Shown here: in pieces, positions 1 to 60,154 of the stretch | Layout of the letters: each line of letters starts with the position of its first letter | Position numbering within the stretch: the stretch's first letter is position 1 | Sequence record: NC_025447.1 | DNA length: 64,000 nt | DNA from: Escherichia phage 121Q | Reading direction: 5' to 3' (one strand) | The notes under the pieces: model-generated | Seen by the model: only the letters and a program-made list of their open reading frames with translations | What the model was told of the DNA's origin: nothing | Databases searched by the model: none | Translations under genes and position numbers: made by a program

Positions 1-5252
<5,252 letters not shown>

Positions 5253-8961: not shown

Positions 8962-10446
8962 ATGAAAACTTGTAAGTTAACCTTATTGGATGAGGTGAAT
9001 TGTAAATTTGAGGGACTTGATCCCTCAATTAGACAAAAGATGATTCGTGCAACTGAATATGTGTTGCCATATGCAAAGTTCACACCAGCAGGACGTATTG
9101 GACGTTGGGATGGTAAAGTTCAGTTTATGAATTTAGGCGGGACAACTTATTATCATATGTTAGATAAGTTATTGCCTATTCTTGATGAAGCTAAGATTGA
9201 CATTGAATTAGTAGATCATAGGGTAGATTATGGATTTAAATTTGACCCTATTGATGAAGATATTTTTAGTGATGTTGTATTCGGTGCAGGACACCACATG
9301 GAAGGTAAATCCATAAAACTGCGTGAACATCAAGTTAATGCGGTTAATGCATGTTTGGCTAATCCACACGGACTACTATTGGCAGCTACTGGTGCAGGTA
9401 AAACTCTCATTACTGCTGCATTGTCAAAGAAAGTGCAAGAGTATGGACGTTCTGTTATAATAGTACCAAGTACTGATTTAGTACAACAAACATATGATGA
9501 CTATATTATGTGTGGCTTGGACACTGGTATGTTCTATGGTTCACAAAAAGATTTCGGTCACCAACATACAATCACGACTTGGCAATCTTTTAACTCTCTT
9601 TGGAAGAAAACCAAAAAAGGTGAAATAGAATTAACAGAACAAGACGTGAATGATTTTATTGATGGTGTAGTTTGTGTTATAGTTGATGAGTGTCAAGGTG
9701 CTGGTGGTGATGCATTAGTTCAAGTACTATCTAAGGTTATGAACAACGTACCATTGCGTTGGGGTCTTACTGGTACAATTCCAAAAGATCCAGTGGTTGC
9801 AGCTAAAATTAAATGTAATGTTGGTGATGTTATATTCAAAATAACTGCCAAAGAATTACAAGATAAACAGATACTAAGTACATGTAATGTGAATTGTATT
9901 AAACTAAAAAGTAGTATGAAGTTTGCATCATATGCTGAAGAGTTGAAATACTTAGTAACTGACAGAGATAGGATGGCATATGTAGCGTCATTGATATCTG
10001 CGTTATCTGAATCAGGAAACACTTTAGTTTTAGTAGATAGACTTGAAGCAGGTGAGTTGCTATGTGAATTTTTAGGTATTCCAAAATCAGAATTCGTTCG
10101 TGGAGAAACCAAAAAGAAAGATCGAGAATCATCTTATGGTGAAATTCGTTGGGCTGATAATAAAATACTTATTGCGACATACGGCGTTGCCAGTACTGGT
10201 ATTAGTATTTCAAGGTTATATAATGTAGTATTGATTGAGCCAGGAAAAAGTTTTGTAAGAACTATACAGTCAATTGGACGTGGATTACGCCGAGCAGAAG
10301 ATAAAGATCACGTAGAAATATATGATATTAGTGGTTCTAATAAGTATAGTGCAAAGCATTTACGAGAACGTTTAGCTTACTATAAGGAAGCACAATATCC
10401 TCATAGTATTATAGATGTTAAAGATTGGGAAAACACAGCGGGATAA
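8962..10446 (+). CDS. uvsW: UvsW-like SF2 DNA helicase
   Basis: Walker A ATGAGKT, DECQ box, TIQSIGRGLRR block comparable to T4 UvsW. Confidence 0.8.
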   Translation: MKTCKLTLLDEVNCKFEGLDPSIRQKMIRATEYVLPYAKFTPAGRIGRWDGKVQFMNLGGTTYYHMLDKLLPILDEAKIDIELVDHRVDYGFKFDPIDEDIFSDVVFGAGHHMEGKSIKLREHQVNAVNACLANPHGLLLAATGAGKTLITAALSKKVQEYGRSVIIVPSTDLVQQTYDDYIMCGLDTGMFYGSQKDFGHQHTITTWQSFNSLWKKTKKGEIELTEQDVNDFIDGVVCVIVDECQGAGGDALVQVLSKVMNNVPLRWGLTGTIPKDPVVAAKIKCNVGDVIFKITAKELQDKQILSTCNVNCIKLKSSMKFASYAEELKYLVTDRDRMAYVASLISALSESGNTLVLVDRLEAGELLCEFLGIPKSEFVRGETKKKDRESSYGEIRWADNKILIATYGVASTGISISRLYNVVLIEPGKSFVRTIQSIGRGLRRAEDKDHVEIYDISGSNKYSAKHLRERLAYYKEAQYPHSIIDVKDWENTAG

Positions 10447-10455
10447 ACCCGCTGT
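10435..10455 (+). terminator. hairpin overlapping uvsW stop codon
   Basis: ACAGCGGG / CCCGCTGT perfect 8-bp stem, loop ATAAA; weak T-tract. Confidence 0.5.
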
Positions 10456-10458
10456 TTG

Positions 10459-10467
10459 TGATATAAT
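10459..10467 (+). promoter_or_regulatory. extended -10 promoter element
   Basis: TGTGATATAATG immediately after the uvsW hairpin; 12-bp palindrome follows. Confidence 0.5.
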
Positions 10468-35017: not shown

Positions 35018-37183
<2,166 letters not shown>

Positions 37184-37979: not shown

Positions 37980-38012
37980 ATATCGGGACAAATCGTTCCG
38001 ATATTTTTTTTT
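37980..38012 (+). terminator. intrinsic terminator
   Basis: ATATCGGGAC / GTTCCGATAT stem followed by T9. Confidence 0.8.
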
Positions 38013-38040
38013 GAGACAAACAAAACATTGGTGATACAAT
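38011..38040 (+). promoter_or_regulatory. sigma70-type promoter (TTGAGA-18-TACAAT, TG-extended)
   Basis: Directly after the terminator, upstream of the topo II large subunit gene. Confidence 0.6.
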
Positions 38041-38074
38041 GTTTTATGACAAAGAGACATGATAAGGAATTCAA

Positions 38075-44297: not shown

Positions 44298-44775
44298 TGT
44301 AAAATGTAATCTTAACGCAGTAGTTTATGCAATCAATTGCGGTGCGGATATCCAGTACTTACAATTGCAGGAAATTGATGAACCTGAAAGGTTGAAATTC
44401 AATGATAACTGTAAAAAATTTGGCTTAGAACAACGTATGCTGGATTATACTATCGAGCATGATAAAAATCATGAACTTTGGCGTTATGATCCAGTATACG
44501 ACAATATAAATCTACGTGACTTTTTCTTACAAAAATGTACATCAGATGAAGCACGAAAGCGTGTTGAGTATGAACTAGATTTATATGAATATTATAATAT
44601 GACAAAGCTATTAAGATGTATGATATGGCTTGTTGATTATATGGAAGAAAATGAGATCTTTTGGGGTCTAGGGCGTGGAAGCTCGGTTGCATCATACTGT
44701 TTGTTTTTGATTGGTCTACACATGGTAGATTCATTGAAATACGAACTCGATGTTAATGAATTTTTGAAATGGTAG
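44233..44775 (+). CDS. hypothetical protein
   Basis: Overlaps upstream ORF by about 65 nt, no clear SD; start uncertain. Confidence 0.4.
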   Translation: MKRPRKRKMKVQGNRFISPNGDVKCNLNAVVYAINCGADIQYLQLQEIDEPERLKFNDNCKKFGLEQRMLDYTIEHDKNHELWRYDPVYDNINLRDFFLQKCTSDEARKRVEYELDLYEYYNMTKLLRCMIWLVDYMEENEIFWGLGRGSSVASYCLFLIGLHMVDSLKYELDVNEFLKW

Positions 44776-44784
44776 CAAAACATG

Positions 44785-44793
44785 TGATATAAT
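44785..44793 (+). promoter_or_regulatory. extended -10 promoter element inside a 10-bp inverted repeat
   Basis: TGTGATATAATG; TGTGATATAA (44783-44792) pairs with TTATATCACA (44807-44816). Confidence 0.5.
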
Positions 44794-44838
44794 GTTTATT
44801 GTAGGCTTATATCACACATACAATAAAAGGATTTTGAT

Positions 44839-48789: not shown

Positions 48790-49604
48790 GAATTTTAAAT
48801 ATGCTTAAATCTCTTCACGAAACAACCAAATTACATCAGGATGAAAAGTATCGTCGCAGCCTTACTAAAGATTTAGCATGTCGTATGTATATGCGTAGAT
48901 TTGAAATTTCAAGAATTGGTAAAGGCTGGGATGATGTAAATCGTGAAGACATTGATCCAGATGCAATTTTTAAAGCATACATGGCTAGAAAAGTTTTCAT
49001 AAATGAAAAAACTTTTTATATTGATAGTGATAGAGAATTAGAAAATAAATTTACAAAAGGTTTATGGAAGATATGGTGTGTTGAAGTATTCGGTGAAGTA
49101 TTACCTGAGCCACCTGTTCCAGAAACTTATAAAGATTTAAAAAGTATTTTTGATAATGAACATATACATTCAAATTTCTCATTATATGATACTGTGTCAG
49201 AAGCTGTATTTTATGGTGAGTTACATGGTCATAACAAATACTTTGATAGTATGGTTAGTTTTGATTTGTTTTGTCACTTGCCTGGTGTATCAAGTTGGAC
49301 ATGTGACCAACACAGAGCAAGTAAGATTGATAAGCGAAAATTCTCGGCCCAAAGATTTATGCAAGTTGCTATGAGTATGTATAAACTTGATTATCTTGGT
49401 TGTCCAGAACCATATAAACATTTTTGGAAAGAAAGAGCACAAAAATGTTTAAACTATTGTATAATCCGTTTAATGGACACATACATTCTTAAGTTTAGAA
49501 ATGCAACTGTATACGACATGCCTGAACCACCAAAGAATGAAAAATATCCACCTGTCAAGACATTTGTATGGTACAAGGATAAAAGTAACAAAAGGATGCA
49601 CTAA
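48786..49604 (+). CDS. hypothetical protein
   Basis: ORF track; terminator follows. Confidence 0.5.
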   Translation: MRILNMLKSLHETTKLHQDEKYRRSLTKDLACRMYMRRFEISRIGKGWDDVNREDIDPDAIFKAYMARKVFINEKTFYIDSDRELENKFTKGLWKIWCVEVFGEVLPEPPVPETYKDLKSIFDNEHIHSNFSLYDTVSEAVFYGELHGHNKYFDSMVSFDLFCHLPGVSSWTCDQHRASKIDKRKFSAQRFMQVAMSMYKLDYLGCPEPYKHFWKERAQKCLNYCIIRLMDTYILKFRNATVYDMPEPPKNEKYPPVKTFVWYKDKSNKRMH

Positions 49605-49620
49605 GGTGCGTCCTTTTTTT
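49594..49620 (+). terminator. intrinsic terminator
   Basis: GGATGCAC / GTGCGTCC stem (one G-U) followed by T7. Confidence 0.7.
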
Positions 49621-49631
49621 CTTTTCAGGTG

Positions 49632-49660
49632 TTGACATGTGTAGTCGAAGTATGTACAAT
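49632..49660 (+). promoter_or_regulatory. sigma70-type promoter (TTGACA-17-TACAAT)
   Basis: Near-consensus hexamers and spacing, just after the terminator. Confidence 0.65.
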
Positions 49661-49701
49661 ATCACCATCGCGTAAATTTTAATTGATTATGAGGTTTTAT
49701 A

Positions 49702-50829
49702 ATGAAAGGTAAATATTTTTTCATTGAAAATGGCAAAGAAGTTGAGATTCAAGAATTTAACTATAATTATGTACTGAACTCTTTATTGAAACAATATGAC
49801 CGTTCATCAAACAAAAAATACATTTATAATGTAATTGTTCGCCGCACCTATGACTCATTGGGTAATCCGTTATTTGATGTAAAAACTCTGTCATTAGATG
49901 AAATCTATTTTGATAATAAACGTCTGAAAGTTCTTGATTTAATGAAGGATAAAATTCATTTTAGTAATATTAGAATTGATCCTAACATGCCAGTACCGCC
50001 ATTAGAGCGTGAATATCGTGAATGGAAAGAAGGTCGTGCCAAACCACGTTTAGACTTGGTACAAACATCACCAGATGTACCTGCACCTATTGTTCTTAAG
50101 AAAAAACCTATCAACCCAGACGATAGCAGAATTGATGACATTGAAAGATGGGTTGAATTCCCTAGTACTATTGAAAAGAATTCAGTAAAAGTACTAGACT
50201 GGTTTGTAAACTTACCAGTTTGTGCACAAGAAATTGGAACTAAGATTCAACAAATTTCAGAACGTCAATTGGATCTTAACTCAGCATTACAACAGCATAG
50301 TGATTATATTAGAATGCTTATGAATAACCTTACTGTTGCGTTGGAAACGTTGTTCCCATTGAAGCCGACCTTTACACAGAAATTGTTTGGTAAAACTGAT
50401 ATCAAAGTGCAACCATCAGATTTGCCAAAAGTGATGAAAGCACTAAATGAAGCAGTTAAATATGACACTAATAAGTTTAGTGGTCTTAGTACGATGTTTT
50501 CAGAACTTAGAAACGAAGTTAATGAAATCAAAAATGAACTTGAATATGGTAAGTTGGGTTGTGAATACGCACTACGTTGTGTGGATGATGCGTTTGAATA
50601 TGAATTAACATTAGAACGTATTATGAAAATGGGAATCACCACCTCCATGACTGAAACGAGCATTATTGCAACAAGTAAGCAATATCAAGTTGATATGAAT
50701 CGTATGGTAGATATTCAAACTATTACTATTCCTTTGATTATCAATCGTTTACAATCACAGACAGGTAAAGCCGTAGATGAGAGTACTGTAGAGATTATTC
50801 GTAATCTGGCATATGGTAACAAAGAGTAA
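49702..50829 (+). CDS. hypothetical protein
   Basis: Consensus sigma70 promoter upstream, GAGG RBS. Confidence 0.55.
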   Translation: MKGKYFFIENGKEVEIQEFNYNYVLNSLLKQYDRSSNKKYIYNVIVRRTYDSLGNPLFDVKTLSLDEIYFDNKRLKVLDLMKDKIHFSNIRIDPNMPVPPLEREYREWKEGRAKPRLDLVQTSPDVPAPIVLKKKPINPDDSRIDDIERWVEFPSTIEKNSVKVLDWFVNLPVCAQEIGTKIQQISERQLDLNSALQQHSDYIRMLMNNLTVALETLFPLKPTFTQKLFGKTDIKVQPSDLPKVMKALNEAVKYDTNKFSGLSTMFSELRNEVNEIKNELEYGKLGCEYALRCVDDAFEYELTLERIMKMGITTSMTETSIIATSKQYQVDMNRMVDIQTITIPLIINRLQSQTGKAVDESTVEIIRNLAYGNKE

Positions 50830-50837
50830 AAAAATAC

Positions 50838-50866
50838 TTGACTATCATACGTGCTGCCCGTATAAT
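50838..50866 (+). promoter_or_regulatory. sigma70-type promoter (TTGACT-17-TATAAT)
   Basis: Near-consensus; -10 flanked by inverted repeat GTGCTGC / GCAGCAC. Confidence 0.65.
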
Positions 50867-50914
50867 GTTTATCACAGAGCAGCACATCATATTAAATTAA
50901 ACGAGGAATACTAA

Positions 50915-52051
50915 ATGTCCGAGAAAGAAATCAATCCTAAAAAAGCATCCACCGCAGCTAAATCAGCAAAACGTACTACTAAAACTGCGACTAAAGGTCA
51001 TACAATTGATGCAAGTGATATTTTTAACCAAACTACAAAATCACTACCAGTACTGAAAGATGTTAAGGGAAATACTATGTCTCTAACAGTTCAAAACATC
51101 AATACTGTTGGTACAACTGCTGGTGCTGCTGTTGGGCGTTTGGCTGATGAAATTATGTCTAAAGTTAATGTAACGGATGACAATACCGAGTTTGGTAAAT
51201 CAATCACCACAATTCTTACGTTGACTCGTGCAGTTGATATTGATAGTCTTCAAGAAGATAAATCAATTGTTGGTCGTATTAAGAAATTCTTTGTTAATGC
51301 TCAACAGAAAGTAGGTGATCAGTACAAAAACAGTAAAGAGCAAATTGACGAAATTATGAAAACTCTTCAAACTGGTATTAATCGCCAGCACGGAGAATGT
51401 GAATGGCTTGATAAAGCATATAATGAAAACAAAGAATATTTGTTTGAATTGCGTGATACATTAGTTGGTTTAGAAGAAGTGACTAAAACACAAGATGCAT
51501 TATTAGTAGAAATGCAAGCAGACAAAAATGTAGACTCTTTTGCTATTCAAGAGCAAAAGATGATTTGTGAAGCACTTTCTAAACAAGAAGATAAGATTCG
51601 TCGTCTTATCATGATGTGCGAGCTAAGTGGTCCACGTTTGATGAGTATGAAAAAAGTAAACTTAAACACTGTTTCTAAGTTTGAAGATTTAAAATCTGTT
51701 GTTATTCCAGCATGGAAGTCTCAATTGGCTGAACAGTTAATTTCCGAGCGTCAACGTAAGGATAATGAACTAGGCAATCTGATTGATAATGAGACAAACC
51801 GTCTTTTGGAAACTAACTCTAAAATGGTTGCAGCAAATATGTTGGACGCAGCAAAGGCAAACAACCGTGGTATTGTGGATATTAAAACCTTGCGTAATGT
51901 ACATAAAACGATGATTGACAGTATTGAAGCAGTTATTGAAGAAGAGAAAAAAGGTAAATTGGAACGTGAACGTGCTAAACAGGAAATTGCACAACTTTCC
52001 TATGAACTGGAAGACACTCTTCGTGAAATTGCCGAAAAAGCTAACAAGTAA
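50915..52051 (+). CDS. hypothetical coiled-coil protein
   Basis: Consensus promoter upstream, GAGGAA RBS. Confidence 0.55.
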   Translation: MSEKEINPKKASTAAKSAKRTTKTATKGHTIDASDIFNQTTKSLPVLKDVKGNTMSLTVQNINTVGTTAGAAVGRLADEIMSKVNVTDDNTEFGKSITTILTLTRAVDIDSLQEDKSIVGRIKKFFVNAQQKVGDQYKNSKEQIDEIMKTLQTGINRQHGECEWLDKAYNENKEYLFELRDTLVGLEEVTKTQDALLVEMQADKNVDSFAIQEQKMICEALSKQEDKIRRLIMMCELSGPRLMSMKKVNLNTVSKFEDLKSVVIPAWKSQLAEQLISERQRKDNELGNLIDNETNRLLETNSKMVAANMLDAAKANNRGIVDIKTLRNVHKTMIDSIEAVIEEEKKGKLERERAKQEIAQLSYELEDTLREIAEKANK

Positions 52052-52054
52052 TAG

Positions 52055-52083
52055 TTGACATATGAGTGCGTTTTTAATATAAT
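52055..52083 (+). promoter_or_regulatory. sigma70-type promoter (TTGACA-17-TATAAT) upstream of dexA-like gene
   Basis: Perfect hexamers; -10 lies in the loop of the 52065-52100 hairpin. Confidence 0.65.
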
Positions 52084-52106
52084 CTTATTGAAAACGCACT
52101 CTTTTT
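52065..52106 (+). terminator. hairpin plus T-run enclosing a promoter -10
   Basis: AGTGCGTTTT / AAAACGCACT 10-bp inverted repeat, then CTTTTT. Confidence 0.55.
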
Positions 52107-52130
52107 AATGTACAGATAAGGAACTAACTT

Positions 52131-52820
52131 ATGAAACGTCGTCATATTAGTGTTGATATTGAAGCTCTTGGAACACCTGAACTTTCCGGTTATGATATTA
52201 TTATCCCAAATTACGCAGCAGTAGTAGTTCCAAGTAAACCTGAAAATGACATTCGTCAGTTCTTATATATTAAATTACCATACCAGGATCAAGTTGCTAC
52301 TGGTTTAAAATCAGACGCAGGTGCAATGGATTTTTGGATGAATACATGTCAGAAAGAATACCCTAATGCATATTCTGAAGTTGCCAGTACTATGAAACTC
52401 AAAGCACCTGAACTGTATGGACCGAATGGTCAATCACGACGATTTTTTGCATACAGTAGTATTGTTGATTTCTGGAAAGAATTACGTTACAATGATTATG
52501 GTGAAGAAGTTCCTCATTCAGTCTGGGGTAATGGATGTAACTTCGATTGTAGTATTTTACAAGCAAACCATTTAAAACTAATGAACGCTGGTGAGTTGTG
52601 GAAGTATGATGCACCTGAAAATGCACGCACATTGAAACGTTTATTGAATGAAGAAGCTCGTATTGAAATGGATGAAATCGTTTCGGTACAGTTGGATAAA
52701 TTTATCACATATGCAAATACGTGTGGGATTAATGGGTTGGAGTTACATCATCCACTATTTGATGCAGCACGTGAAGCAATCCAGATTTCATTCTGTCTAA
52801 ACAAGCTTAAAATGGATTAA
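52131..52820 (+). CDS. dexA: exonuclease A (DexA-like DEDDh)
   Basis: VDIEALG, GNGCNFDCSIL and HHPLFDAAREA blocks parallel T4 DexA. Confidence 0.65.
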   Translation: MKRRHISVDIEALGTPELSGYDIIIPNYAAVVVPSKPENDIRQFLYIKLPYQDQVATGLKSDAGAMDFWMNTCQKEYPNAYSEVASTMKLKAPELYGPNGQSRRFFAYSSIVDFWKELRYNDYGEEVPHSVWGNGCNFDCSILQANHLKLMNAGELWKYDAPENARTLKRLLNEEARIEMDEIVSVQLDKFITYANTCGINGLELHHPLFDAAREAIQISFCLNKLKMD

Positions 52821-52823
52821 TAC

Positions 52824-53918
52824 ATGAATTTCATTATTCTGTTAATACCTGCTCTTATCGTTGTATTCGTTATGAAATACATGTACGATAAGCATATCAG
52901 TACTAAAGAACTATTGATTCATATTGGTTGTTGTCTGGTTGGTGCGGCTCTTGTTCTTGGTATTTCATACGCAATCAACTATAGCCAGCTTTATGATGTT
53001 GAGATTCTGAATGGTCAAGTAACTTCAAAATACAGCCACAAAGAATATTGCACACAATCTAGTTCATGTAAGCACTATACATGGCATGAGAAGTGCCATA
53101 CGCGATATGATAGTAAAGGTAAATCACATCGTGAGTGTGAATCATATAAGGTTTTTGATTACTCATATGAAGTTGATTGGTATGTGAAAAGTACAGTAGG
53201 TGAGTTTGAGATTGAACGTGTGAACCGTCAAGGTACAATGACACCACCACGATGGCAGCAAGTTATGATTGGTGACTATGCCGCAGCAGAGAGTTCATAT
53301 ATCAACTATCTATTTGCTGATAAGAACTCATTGTTTAGTCCTGAAGAACTACACAACATGTATGATGAAAAGTATCTTAGTACTATTCCAGAATACCCAA
53401 GTGTAGTTGATTATTACAAAACACATCACGTAATTAACACTACAAATTACAACGTTGATGGTTACGATGAATACCTTCGTAATGAGCTAAAAACGATGGG
53501 TGCACGTAAGCAGGTAAACATCCAAGTACTAGTATATGATTACAAAGATGTGGATTTTGTTGATGCTACCCTTGCATCGTGGCGTGGTGGTAAGAAGAAT
53601 GATGTTATTATGTTCTTTGGTATTGACAATGATGGTAACGTTGTTAAATTCAACAGTACATCATTTGCACAAGGAATGAAGAATGAAGATTTACATGCAA
53701 AGATGCGTATTGATGCATTAAATGAAAAATTAACTCTTGACTTACTAGTTAAAGAAGTACATAATATTGACGCACAGTTTGAGAGACTCTCTAATAAAGA
53801 GTTTGAGTACTTGTCAGTAAAAATGGAACCTAGAAAAGATGTTCTTATCGGTGCTTCCATTGTTTTGTTGATTCTGTCTATTTTCATTGGCCTTTATATG
53901 AGGGATAACGATTTATGA
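52824..53918 (+). CDS. membrane protein (N- and C-terminal TM segments)
   Basis: Hydrophobic segments at both ends, Cys/His-rich central part. Confidence 0.5.
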   Translation: MNFIILLIPALIVVFVMKYMYDKHISTKELLIHIGCCLVGAALVLGISYAINYSQLYDVEILNGQVTSKYSHKEYCTQSSSCKHYTWHEKCHTRYDSKGKSHRECESYKVFDYSYEVDWYVKSTVGEFEIERVNRQGTMTPPRWQQVMIGDYAAAESSYINYLFADKNSLFSPEELHNMYDEKYLSTIPEYPSVVDYYKTHHVINTTNYNVDGYDEYLRNELKTMGARKQVNIQVLVYDYKDVDFVDATLASWRGGKKNDVIMFFGIDNDGNVVKFNSTSFAQGMKNEDLHAKMRIDALNEKLTLDLLVKEVHNIDAQFERLSNKEFEYLSVKMEPRKDVLIGASIVLLILSIFIGLYMRDNDL

Positions 53919-54469
53919 ATGGTAAACTCCTTGCGTTAATTGGTATTTTGGTAGTTATCGTACTAATGGTGTTTGGTTCTATTAGTATGTATGTTGGTAC
54001 ACATGATCGTGCAGTTGAGTTTGAAGGAAACATTAAAAAGTACTATGATGCATCTGAAAGTCAACTTAGCAATTATAATCTTACTATTCAAGATAAGGTT
54101 CAAGTAGCAGATAAGTACAAAGATGCGTTGAAAGAAACGATTGAATCATACTTTAAAGGGCGTGAAGGTGTTGACCAGAAGTTTGTAATGTCACAGATTC
54201 AACAACAGGTTCCAAATCTTGATCCTAAAATTTATCAGGAATTGATGGTGACAATTGAAGCAGGACGTACAAAGTTCAACAATCTTCAGAAAATGAAAAT
54301 TGACCAGTGTACTGATTATGCTAAGTTCCGCAAAGGCTTCTGGAATTCCAAAATTCTTGATTCGAATACGTTTCCAAGTGAAAATATTGAACACCTTTGT
54401 ACAGTAGTATCTGATACGCGTACCAAGAAAGCAATGGATACTGGTATTCAAGAATCAATTAAACTATAA
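53915..54469 (+). CDS. LemA-like membrane protein
   Basis: N-terminal TM and C-terminal region resembling LemA family (ELMVTIEAGRTKFNNL...YAKFRKGF). Confidence 0.4.
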   Translation: MNGKLLALIGILVVIVLMVFGSISMYVGTHDRAVEFEGNIKKYYDASESQLSNYNLTIQDKVQVADKYKDALKETIESYFKGREGVDQKFVMSQIQQQVPNLDPKIYQELMVTIEAGRTKFNNLQKMKIDQCTDYAKFRKGFWNSKILDSNTFPSENIEHLCTVVSDTRTKKAMDTGIQESIKL

Positions 54470-54478
54470 TTAAATGTT

Positions 54479-54503
54479 GGGAGTACTTTGTACTCCCCTT
54501 TTC
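54479..54503 (+). terminator. intrinsic terminator
   Basis: GGGAGTAC / GTACTCCC stem plus CTTTT. Confidence 0.8.
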
Positions 54504-59292: not shown

Positions 59293-59688
59293 ATGAAGAA
59301 CAATATTGGAACTTCAATAATTAAACCACTTTCTTATTACCTTGAAAAATTTAGAAGCACAAATGGTAATAAATTTAATAATATATTTCAGTTCTCTCAT
59401 AAAGAATATATTACAATTGATCATTTTTCAAAGAAACTAATGTATGTAAATGATAATAGTCATATTATTAAATTATCATTCGATATTGAGTTAGATAAAT
59501 TAACATTTACGGAATACATTAATCAAAAAACTTCTTTTTTATGTCAATACAATAGGAAAGTATATAGTAATATTTCTATGTATCTAAATGATGAATATCA
59601 CTTTCAACAATCTACAATAGAAGAAGTATTGTTCAGTACTGAAGAATTAAAAGAACTATATTACTGGTATAATTATTTCACATCTTGA
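59293..59688 (+). CDS. paralog family member 2
   Basis: DEYHFQQSTIEE motif; GAGGA RBS. Confidence 0.5.
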   Translation: MKNNIGTSIIKPLSYYLEKFRSTNGNKFNNIFQFSHKEYITIDHFSKKLMYVNDNSHIIKLSFDIELDKLTFTEYINQKTSFLCQYNRKVYSNISMYLNDEYHFQQSTIEEVLFSTEELKELYYWYNYFTS

Positions 59689-59743
59689 CATTATTGTGGG
59701 TTTATCCTACAATATATGATGATGCTGCATTGAGGATAAATTT

Positions 59744-60154
59744 ATGAGTTTAGATTTACACAATGAACTAAAATATTTTTTAGATTTGGACATATCAGAA
59801 TTGAACCACCACGTCAATCATATGACTAGTACTGTATGGTGGTCTAATGATCAAGACGACCCAATTATCCAACTAAGTGATGAATCGTCAATTATGCGAT
59901 TTTATAAGATTAATTATAAAAAGAACATCAAGATCACATATGTACCATACAAAAACATACTACTAGTCGAAACACTTAATCCAAGTTCTTTATTAAAAAT
60001 CACCGATTTAGATACATTACAAACAAGTGAATCTTTATTCCAACGTTCATTAGTTGATGATCTTGGTGGTATTACTTTTGAAGATATATTACAATTGAAG
60101 AATATGTATAGTGAATTGTTGGAGATTAAAAACACTTTAGTAATGGGGAATTGA
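59744..60154 (+). CDS. paralog family member 3
   Basis: SESLFQRSLVDD motif. Confidence 0.5.
   Translation: MSLDLHNELKYFLDLDISELNHHVNHMTSTVWWSNDQDDPIIQLSDESSIMRFYKINYKKNIKITYVPYKNILLVETLNPSSLLKITDLDTLQTSESLFQRSLVDDLGGITFEDILQLKNMYSELLEIKNTLVMGN

Follow-up and report, generated by a model that had tools for sequence, protein, structure and literature searches.

Promoter −10 elements enclosed by hairpins in an Asteriusvirus jumbo phage: a candidate terminator/promoter composite at the TelA-like/exonuclease junction

The stretch of DNA analyzed here—the window, 64,000 nucleotides in length—belongs to an Asteriusvirus (PBECO4/121Q/G17-like) jumbo phage. Its part 49000–54000 is 99.3% identical to about 20 Asteriusvirus jumbo coliphages (PBECO4, G17, phAPEC6, slurp01, and others); identity is lower with the more remote UE-S1 (94%), ph0011 (86%), and Turkey3 and TH47 (approximately 81%). 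The genes of the window are tightly packed and lie almost all on the + strand. For the Rak2-like group, RpoD-like promoters, a divergent promoter class, T4-like late promoters (ATAAATA), and ARNOLD-type terminators have been reported (PMC5259590). Promoters nested in hairpins are absent from the published accounts of this group (PMC5259590; PA5oct, PMC7318152), and a search of the literature on transcripts of Asteriusvirus, RaK2, and phAPEC6 found no promoter/terminator or 5′/3′ end mapping. At three sites of the window, termed S1, S2, and S3, a sigma-70-type promoter has its −10 element within or partly within an inverted repeat. S1 lies at the junction of a TelA-like gene and an exonuclease gene, in a spacer of 79 bp, and features the following elements:

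52055–52060, + strand: −35 element TTGACA, read from the sequence
52064–52101, + strand: hairpin of 16 pairs, 52064–52079 with 52086–52101, and a 6-nt loop TAATCT
52065–52074 and 52091–52100, + strand: perfect repeat AGTGCGTTTT / AAAACGCACT, extending to 11 bp (52064–52074 / 52091–52101)
52078–52083, + strand: −10 element TATAAT, read from the sequence, after a 17-nt spacer
52089–52092, + strand: predicted start, from sigma-70 geometry, 6–8 nt past the −10 and on the first bases of the 3′ arm
52102–52106, + strand: T-run TTTTT, directly 3′ of the stem

The S1 promoter scores 12/12 and is the sole 12/12 match in the scanned region. Beyond the 11 bp of perfect repeat, the stem continues with one U·G and then four A-U pairs, giving the 16 pairs; two bases of the −10, its first, are paired in this upper stem, and the other four form part of the hairpin loop. 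A preliminary description of this DNA had placed a perfect TTGACA-17-TATAAT promoter inside a 10-bp inverted repeat with a T-run, and its coordinates are exact, the repeat being really 11 bp and the stem 16 pairs long. Folds were judged by comparing the RNA minimum free energy (MFE) with that of dinucleotide shuffles (200 per site), and repeats by comparing the longest perfect repeat enclosing the −10 with composition-preserving shuffles, in which the −10 was held fixed and the flanks were shuffled. The S1 hairpin has an MFE of −22.1 kcal/mol (z −9.1), as low as none of the 200 shuffles, and its enclosing repeat has p<0.001. A chance origin is excluded for S1.

The base of the S1 stem carries five G-C pairs, the stable stem-loop of intrinsic terminators, and S1 is the only one of the three sites with a U-tract directly after the stem. 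Like canonical intrinsic terminators, it combines a G-C stem base with a U-run and stands downstream of a stop codon, among genes of one orientation. The hairpin was also recovered by a terminator scan, and the GenBank record of G17 holds a putative ARNOLD terminator (−10.95) at 9064–9101 of that locus (L001), which corresponds to window positions 52064–52101. The promoter is unannotated in the G17 record, and the UE-S1 record has nothing annotated at S1. The other terminators of the window are compact and GC-rich (5–13 pairs, loops of 3–7 nt), whereas S1 spans 38 nt, its upper stem consists largely of A-U pairs, and a promoter lies inside it; as a terminator it is hence less typical. No significant structure was predicted for RNA that begins at position 52090 (−4.0 kcal/mol, z +0.6). 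The Shine–Dalgarno sequence downstream, at approximately 52118–52122, is unpaired in the predicted folds of both the read-through and the promoter-initiated RNA. A search of the whole window against Rfam gave no family at gathering thresholds, and between 44600 and 52300 the sub-threshold matches were confined to an ordinary terminator at 49590.

The elements of S1 can be followed through the relatives. The −35 TTGACA is invariant in the window, UE-S1, ph0011, Turkey3, JNE01, and A4, and the −10 is invariant across the aligned Asteriusvirus relatives, with spacer and loop varying. Among six distinct Asteriusvirus sequences, 97.8% of stem cells are paired, and in every Asteriusvirus relative that has the homologous hairpin, four to seven T follow it directly. 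At the stem base of JNE01, two compensatory pairs are found, G-C to A-U and A-U to G-C (GA...TC to AG...CT). There are G·U pairs in ph0011 and UE-S1, and the Turkey3-type sequences turn the U·G into C-G. The G·U variants pair on the sense strand only, which argues for an RNA structure. With only six distinct sequences, formal covariation is weak and by itself not significant, the observed score being reached in 53 of 500 shuffles. In phage CMSTMSU (L014, MH494197.1, approximately 2247–2325), the S1 spacer measures 15 nt, not 17, and several short ORFs take the place of the TelA-like gene; this record is marked UNVERIFIED, probably contains sequencing errors, and is probably unsuited to fine comparisons.

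At the same junction, A4 features a non-homologous 11-bp hairpin, ATGTGCCCATT-GTAT-AATGGGCACAT, followed by ATTTTATT. This hairpin, too, nests a TTGACA-17-TATAAT promoter, here with the TATAAT spanning the loop and the 3′ arm. A4 carries an independent second version of the composite, and this is stronger evidence than the covariation within the genus. Further relatives were sought in IMG/VR, in which a query with a single TelA-like protein gave no match and a profile of five homologues gave five loci. A compact canonical terminator occupies the S1 junction in RaK2, Hallingskeid, EJP2, 7t3, Munch, GAP32, and three IMG/VR phage contigs (four loci, of which L008 and L009 are identical at this junction), and a T-run follows these compact hairpins of other genera as well. 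No promoter scoring at least 10/12 was found at the S1 junction in any of them. Since all non-core relatives examined have a terminator here, termination is ancestral at this junction, and the Asteriusvirus lineage possesses a version of the terminator that additionally houses a promoter. The outer stem of S1 (AGTGC...GCACT) resembles that of EJP2; the loop of S1 may have been enlarged to take in the −10.

The arrangement suggests how S1 would work. The genes around it would form a co-oriented early or middle block served by the RNA polymerase of the host. A polymerase arriving from the TelA-like gene would transcribe both arms and the U-run and, as we infer, stop near 52102–52107. For a polymerase at the sigma-70 promoter, the 5′ arm would be spacer and the hairpin apex the −10, with a presumed start at approximately 52090. 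RNA started there would lack the 5′ arm and could not form the hairpin; it would therefore read on through the exonuclease gene and two more, to a terminator at 54479–54497. The junction would reset transcription: whatever enters from upstream would end there, and a fixed strong start would take over. The efficiencies of termination and initiation are likewise only inferred, and a polymerase bound at the strong promoter could itself affect read-through, making the efficiency of termination unpredictable. Two tandem modules of the window, 49590–49617 followed by 49632–49660 and approximately 37984–38008 followed by 38011–38040, have the same stop-and-restart logic. In these, terminator and promoter stand side by side, about 14 nt apart or less, whereas in S1 they are interleaved, with about 40 bp saved. 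Promoter–terminator coupling across bacterial genomes is the subject of a preprint (bioRxiv 10.64898/2026.08.19.745784).

The other two sites feature the same enclosure of a −10, S2 upstream of the TelA-like gene and S3 farther upstream:

50838–50866, + strand: S2 promoter TTGACT-17-TATAAT, −35 at 50838–50843 and −10 at 50861–50866, 11/12
50851–50885, + strand: S2 hairpin, arms GTGCTGC (50851–50857) and GCAGCAC (50879–50885) enclosing the −10
50915–52051, + strand: TelA-like gene, downstream of S2
44764–44793, + strand: S3 promoter TTGAAA-18-TATAAT, −35 at 44764–44769 and −10 at 44788–44793, extended −10 TG (TGaTATAAT), 11/12
44783–44816, + strand: S3 hairpin, arms TGTGATATAA (44783–44792) and TTATATCACA (44807–44816)

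Both repeats, the one flanking the TATAAT of S2 and the one including the −10 of S3, are confirmed by the sequence as they had been described. The S2 hairpin folds with −12.9 kcal/mol (z −3.0, 1 of 200 dinucleotide shuffles as low), and its enclosing repeat has p~0.035; taken alone, without the comparative data, S2 is unremarkable. A TTGACA-type promoter is present at the S2 position in all relatives examined, down to a TelA identity of 42–46%, and a hairpin enclosing or overlapping its −10 is found in approximately 13 phages of five to six lineages, with energies of −11 to −17 kcal/mol and loops of 13–25 nt. The arms read GTGTTGC(TCG)/(CGA)GCAACAC in Turkey3 and A4—compensatory with respect to the window (GTGTTG/CAACAC)—AGTGCTGTAT/ATACAGCACT in RaK2, GTAGTGCTG/CAGCACTAC in 7t3, Munch, L008, L009, and L011, and GAGTGC/GCACTC in GAP32. 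In L010, they read AAGTACTGT/ACAGTACTT, with GTACTG/CAGTAC as a second compensatory position. Hallingskeid and EJP2 have an unrelated stem, GGGAGTAT/ATACTCCC, and the JNE01 hairpin contains G·U pairs. Per-site p values among the relatives range from 0.001 to 0.11, and the observed covariation score was reached in 92 of 500 shuffles, the distinct sequences being few (six within the genus). Judged from these comparisons, selection on the S2 pairing is well supported.

The S3 hairpin folds with −11.9 kcal/mol (z −3.5, 0 of 200 dinucleotide shuffles as low), and its enclosing repeat has p~0.001–0.002. The −35 falls within the last codons of the upstream gene, and the 5′ arm includes the TG and five bases of the −10. 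The promoter is present within the genus; the hairpin, confined to close relatives, is absent from RaK2 and 7t3. In relatives of at least 81% identity, the loop and the downstream spacer vary more than the 3′ arm does: UE-S1 and ph0011 have this arm unaltered, and Turkey3 retains 9 of 10 pairs, with the loop diverging. A4 and JNE01 have one uncompensated mismatch each. Since the 5′ arm is the extended −10 itself, compensation cannot be seen here, and selection on the S3 pairing is weakly supported. An antisense promoter arising from the 3′ arm was considered and rejected, the minus-strand hexamer being TATAAG or TATAAC, without the critical final T.

These data bear on whether S2 and S3—S1 being set apart—are functionless chance repeats in A+T-rich promoter DNA. 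An enclosing repeat of at least 7 bp, the length found at S2, occurs at about 7% of random window positions, and among the many promoters of the window some such repeats are expected; at S3, variation is open to the 3′ arm alone, and the mismatches of A4 and JNE01 would fit a repeat without function. Against this, the −10 hairpin of S2 is met in every lineage examined although the remaining spacer is unalignable, with compensatory changes at two pairs and a wholly different stem in one lineage, and S3 has both its low p value and its conserved 3′ arm. For the two sites together, chance is judged unlikely; given the conservation, it appears improbable for S2 and possible for S3. Among 18 promoter-like sites upstream of genes, five have an enclosing repeat with p<0.05, with 0.9 expected, and three have p≤0.002; 13 of the 18 are without such a repeat. 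Repeats enclosing the −10 are enriched, yet they are a minority feature and not a general property of the promoters of this phage.

A second explanation for all three sites is that the arms are operators, at which a dimeric protein of phage or host binds the duplex and blocks the −10—for example, in late shut-off. The palindromes straddle the −10, which is a classic position for a repressor, and the concerted change of both arms could reflect co-evolution of a protein and its site. This possibility, which the preliminary description had also raised, is disfavored by several observations. S1, S2, and S3 have no half-site in common, and GTGCTG...CAGCAC occurs once in the window. The centre-to-centre spacing of the S2 arms varies between 21 and 32 bp among relatives, so that their phasing on the helix is not fixed. 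The G·U variants, which pair on the sense strand only, are A·C on the other strand and break the symmetry of the duplex. In A4, finally, the S1 arms are swapped for unrelated sequence, with hairpin and T-run kept. Operators are hence considered quite unlikely. GTGCTG was also examined as a shared operator motif and rejected: it is over-represented yet scattered in coding DNA on both strands, unlinked to promoters. GTGCTG/CAGCAC occurs 41 times in the window versus 16 expected from dinucleotide shuffles, possibly by codon or dipeptide bias.

What follows the stem separates S2 and S3 from S1. The sequence after the S2 stem is ATCATATT, with U in only 4 of 8 bases, and that after the S3 stem is CATACAAT, with U in only 2 of 8; a U-tract after either stem was found neither in the window phage nor in any relative examined. 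The loops of both are long, and neither the scan nor the annotators of G17 or UE-S1 called a terminator at either site. S2 and S3 are not canonical terminators, as judged by the lack of a U-tract. The single terminator/promoter architecture that had been proposed for all three sites thus holds for S1 and for the common geometry of a −10 within a hairpin; its extension to termination at S2 and S3 is not supported. The same division applies to the proposal that read-through transcripts fold a terminator and that transcripts from the nested promoter lack the 5′ arm. The latter part holds by geometry at S1, S2, and S3, and the former is borne out at S1—by the conserved hairpin with its U-run and by the unstructured RNA from 52090—and is not supported at S2 and S3.

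S2 and S3 could still be weak, leaky intrinsic terminators or pause sites, in which case all three sites would be composites of differing strength. Neither upstream gene has another terminator before the next promoter, and several relatives have a moderate share of U just past the S2 stem (UUAUCUU in JNE01, UUAUUAA in 7t3, UAAUUUAA in GAP32). The low U content after both stems of the window, the AUACCAAAC that follows the S2 stem in Hallingskeid and EJP2, and the missing terminator calls speak against it, and this explanation is regarded as doubtful, if conceivable. The reading preferred here, which is considered reasonably probable, is that S1 is a terminator/promoter composite and that S2 and S3 are hairpins most likely formed only in read-through RNA. 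In both, the geometry is that of S1: the spacer or −10 supplies the 5′ arm, and the 3′ arm lies on the start or beyond it. The hairpin would be confined to read-through RNA, on the 3′ flank of the upstream cistron. As a guess, it may act there as a 3′-end or processing barrier, a processing mark, a weak pause, or a leaky stop. S2 and S3 also share a 12-mer, TATAATGTTTAT, made up of the −10 and the next six bases (50861–50872 and 44788–44799), and in 7t3, JNE01, and A4 the TelA promoter likewise has GTTTA(T/C) after its −10; a discriminator or initial-transcribed element may be conserved in this promoter.

The Rak2-like phages are distant relatives of T4. In T4, late promoters are embedded in hairpins at e, soc, I-TevI/II/III, and segB, as is the case for mobE of Aeh1 (PMC2988022). 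These share with S1 that the fate of the RNA is set by its start site and that the internally started RNA lacks the 5′ arm (PMC2988022). The T4 hairpin, however, hides a ribosome-binding site and its nested promoter is of the late type, TATAAATA, whereas S1 would combine an intrinsic terminator, a free ribosome-binding site, and a sigma-70 promoter. That S1–S3 are translational switches of the T4 type, in which the read-through hairpin hides the downstream ribosome-binding site, gains some appeal from the exact geometry shared with T4 e, soc, I-TevI, segB, and others (PMC2988022) and from the presence of what looks like such a device elsewhere in the window, at 35018–35072. The Shine–Dalgarno sequences at approximately 52118–52122, 50903–50907, and 44826–44831 nevertheless lie 10–18 nt past the 3′ arms, and the folds predicted for read-through and promoter-initiated RNA alike leave them unpaired, and the nested promoters are of the sigma-70 type with a −35, not of the late type. 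Masking of the ribosome site as in T4 is rejected at S1–S3 on these folds, and a translational switch of any such kind is very improbable. Since the Shine–Dalgarno sequence is free in both RNA forms of S1, the step controlled would be termination and not translation.

The putative device elsewhere in the window features the following element:

35018–35072: hairpin with arms AAAAACTCCAAGATT (35018–35032) and AATCTTGGAGTTTTT (35058–35072), a 15-bp stem, and a T-run, −22.5 kcal/mol, z −6.0

Its loop contains a conserved GATAAATA (35041–35048), similar to the T4-like late promoter ATAAATA, and its 3′ arm holds the GGAG Shine–Dalgarno sequence (35064–35067) of the gene starting at 35078, which is annotated as KTSC or structural (structural in A4). 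Turkey3, JNE01, A4, and RaK2 all retain the hairpin, with compensatory changes. By analogy, it looks like a device of the T4 e/soc/I-TevI type: the 3′ arm takes up the Shine–Dalgarno sequence here, but not at S1–S3.

S1 appears, from its sequence, to carry the T4 principle of a promoter in a hairpin over to termination, with a sigma-70 promoter. The terminator half of S1 is already in public annotation (G17), and start-site-dependent folding is established in T4; S1 hence extends known biology, and the concept itself is not changed. Were it to work as proposed, a 350-kb phage dependent on host polymerase would insulate neighboring units within approximately 80 bp, with the terminator and the next promoter sharing bases and the new transcript escaping by construction. 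This would provide a useful design rule for annotating transcription units of jumbo phages, and synthetic biology would gain an insulator part of very small size. The deeply conserved S2 hairpin without a U-tract may point to an RNA-level layer of control in Rak2-like phages. A wider generalization—that Rak2-like jumbo phages possess a conserved class of promoter-enclosing hairpins, with S1, 35018–35072, and S2 as three modes—is tentative and rather unlikely. S1 would then stand for termination bypass and 35018–35072 for termination together with masking of the ribosome site, and S2 would be a new element, for instance, a hairpin recognized by a factor or a 5′/3′-end protection of processed read-through RNA.

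Several further promoters of the window have repeats on or near their elements. At 59685–59743, a TTGACA-17-TACAAT promoter is accompanied by the repeat TTTATCCT (59701–59708) / AGGATAAA (59733–59740), with p~0.014 and a fold z of about −2.4; the first arm runs from the end of the spacer into the first base of the −10, while the Shine–Dalgarno sequence of the gene at 59744 lies within the 3′ arm. As a ribosome-site-masking repeat (59701–59740), it was rejected: UE-S1 and ph0011 do not preserve the pairing, and the repeat is probably due to chance. At 38011–38045, a −35 of the GAGACA type (TTGAGA at 38011), an 18-nt spacer, and TACAAT at 38035 lie just downstream of the terminator at approximately 37984–38008. 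A 9-bp repeat, AAAACATTG (38022–38030) / CAATGTTTT (38037–38045), overlaps this −10 with p~0.002, and a shortened form of it, including a G·U pair, is retained in Turkey3. The repeat GACAAACA (5191–5198) / TGTTTGTC (5219–5226) flanks TGATATAAT (5211–5216), with a fold z of only −1.6, and a small hairpin, GCGGG-ATAAA-CCCGC (10438–10452), sits on the −35 position of the TGaTATAAT at 10462. The window also features a second class of promoters, G(A/G)GACAAA followed after about 11–13 nt by TGnTAtAAT, with an extended −10 and a GAGACA-like −35; the −35 elements lie at approximately 5190, 5266, 10440, 15292, 21682, 27379, and 38011. This class may be the one reported from CBB and GAP32 as "divergent RpoD-like" or middle promoters (PMC5259590).
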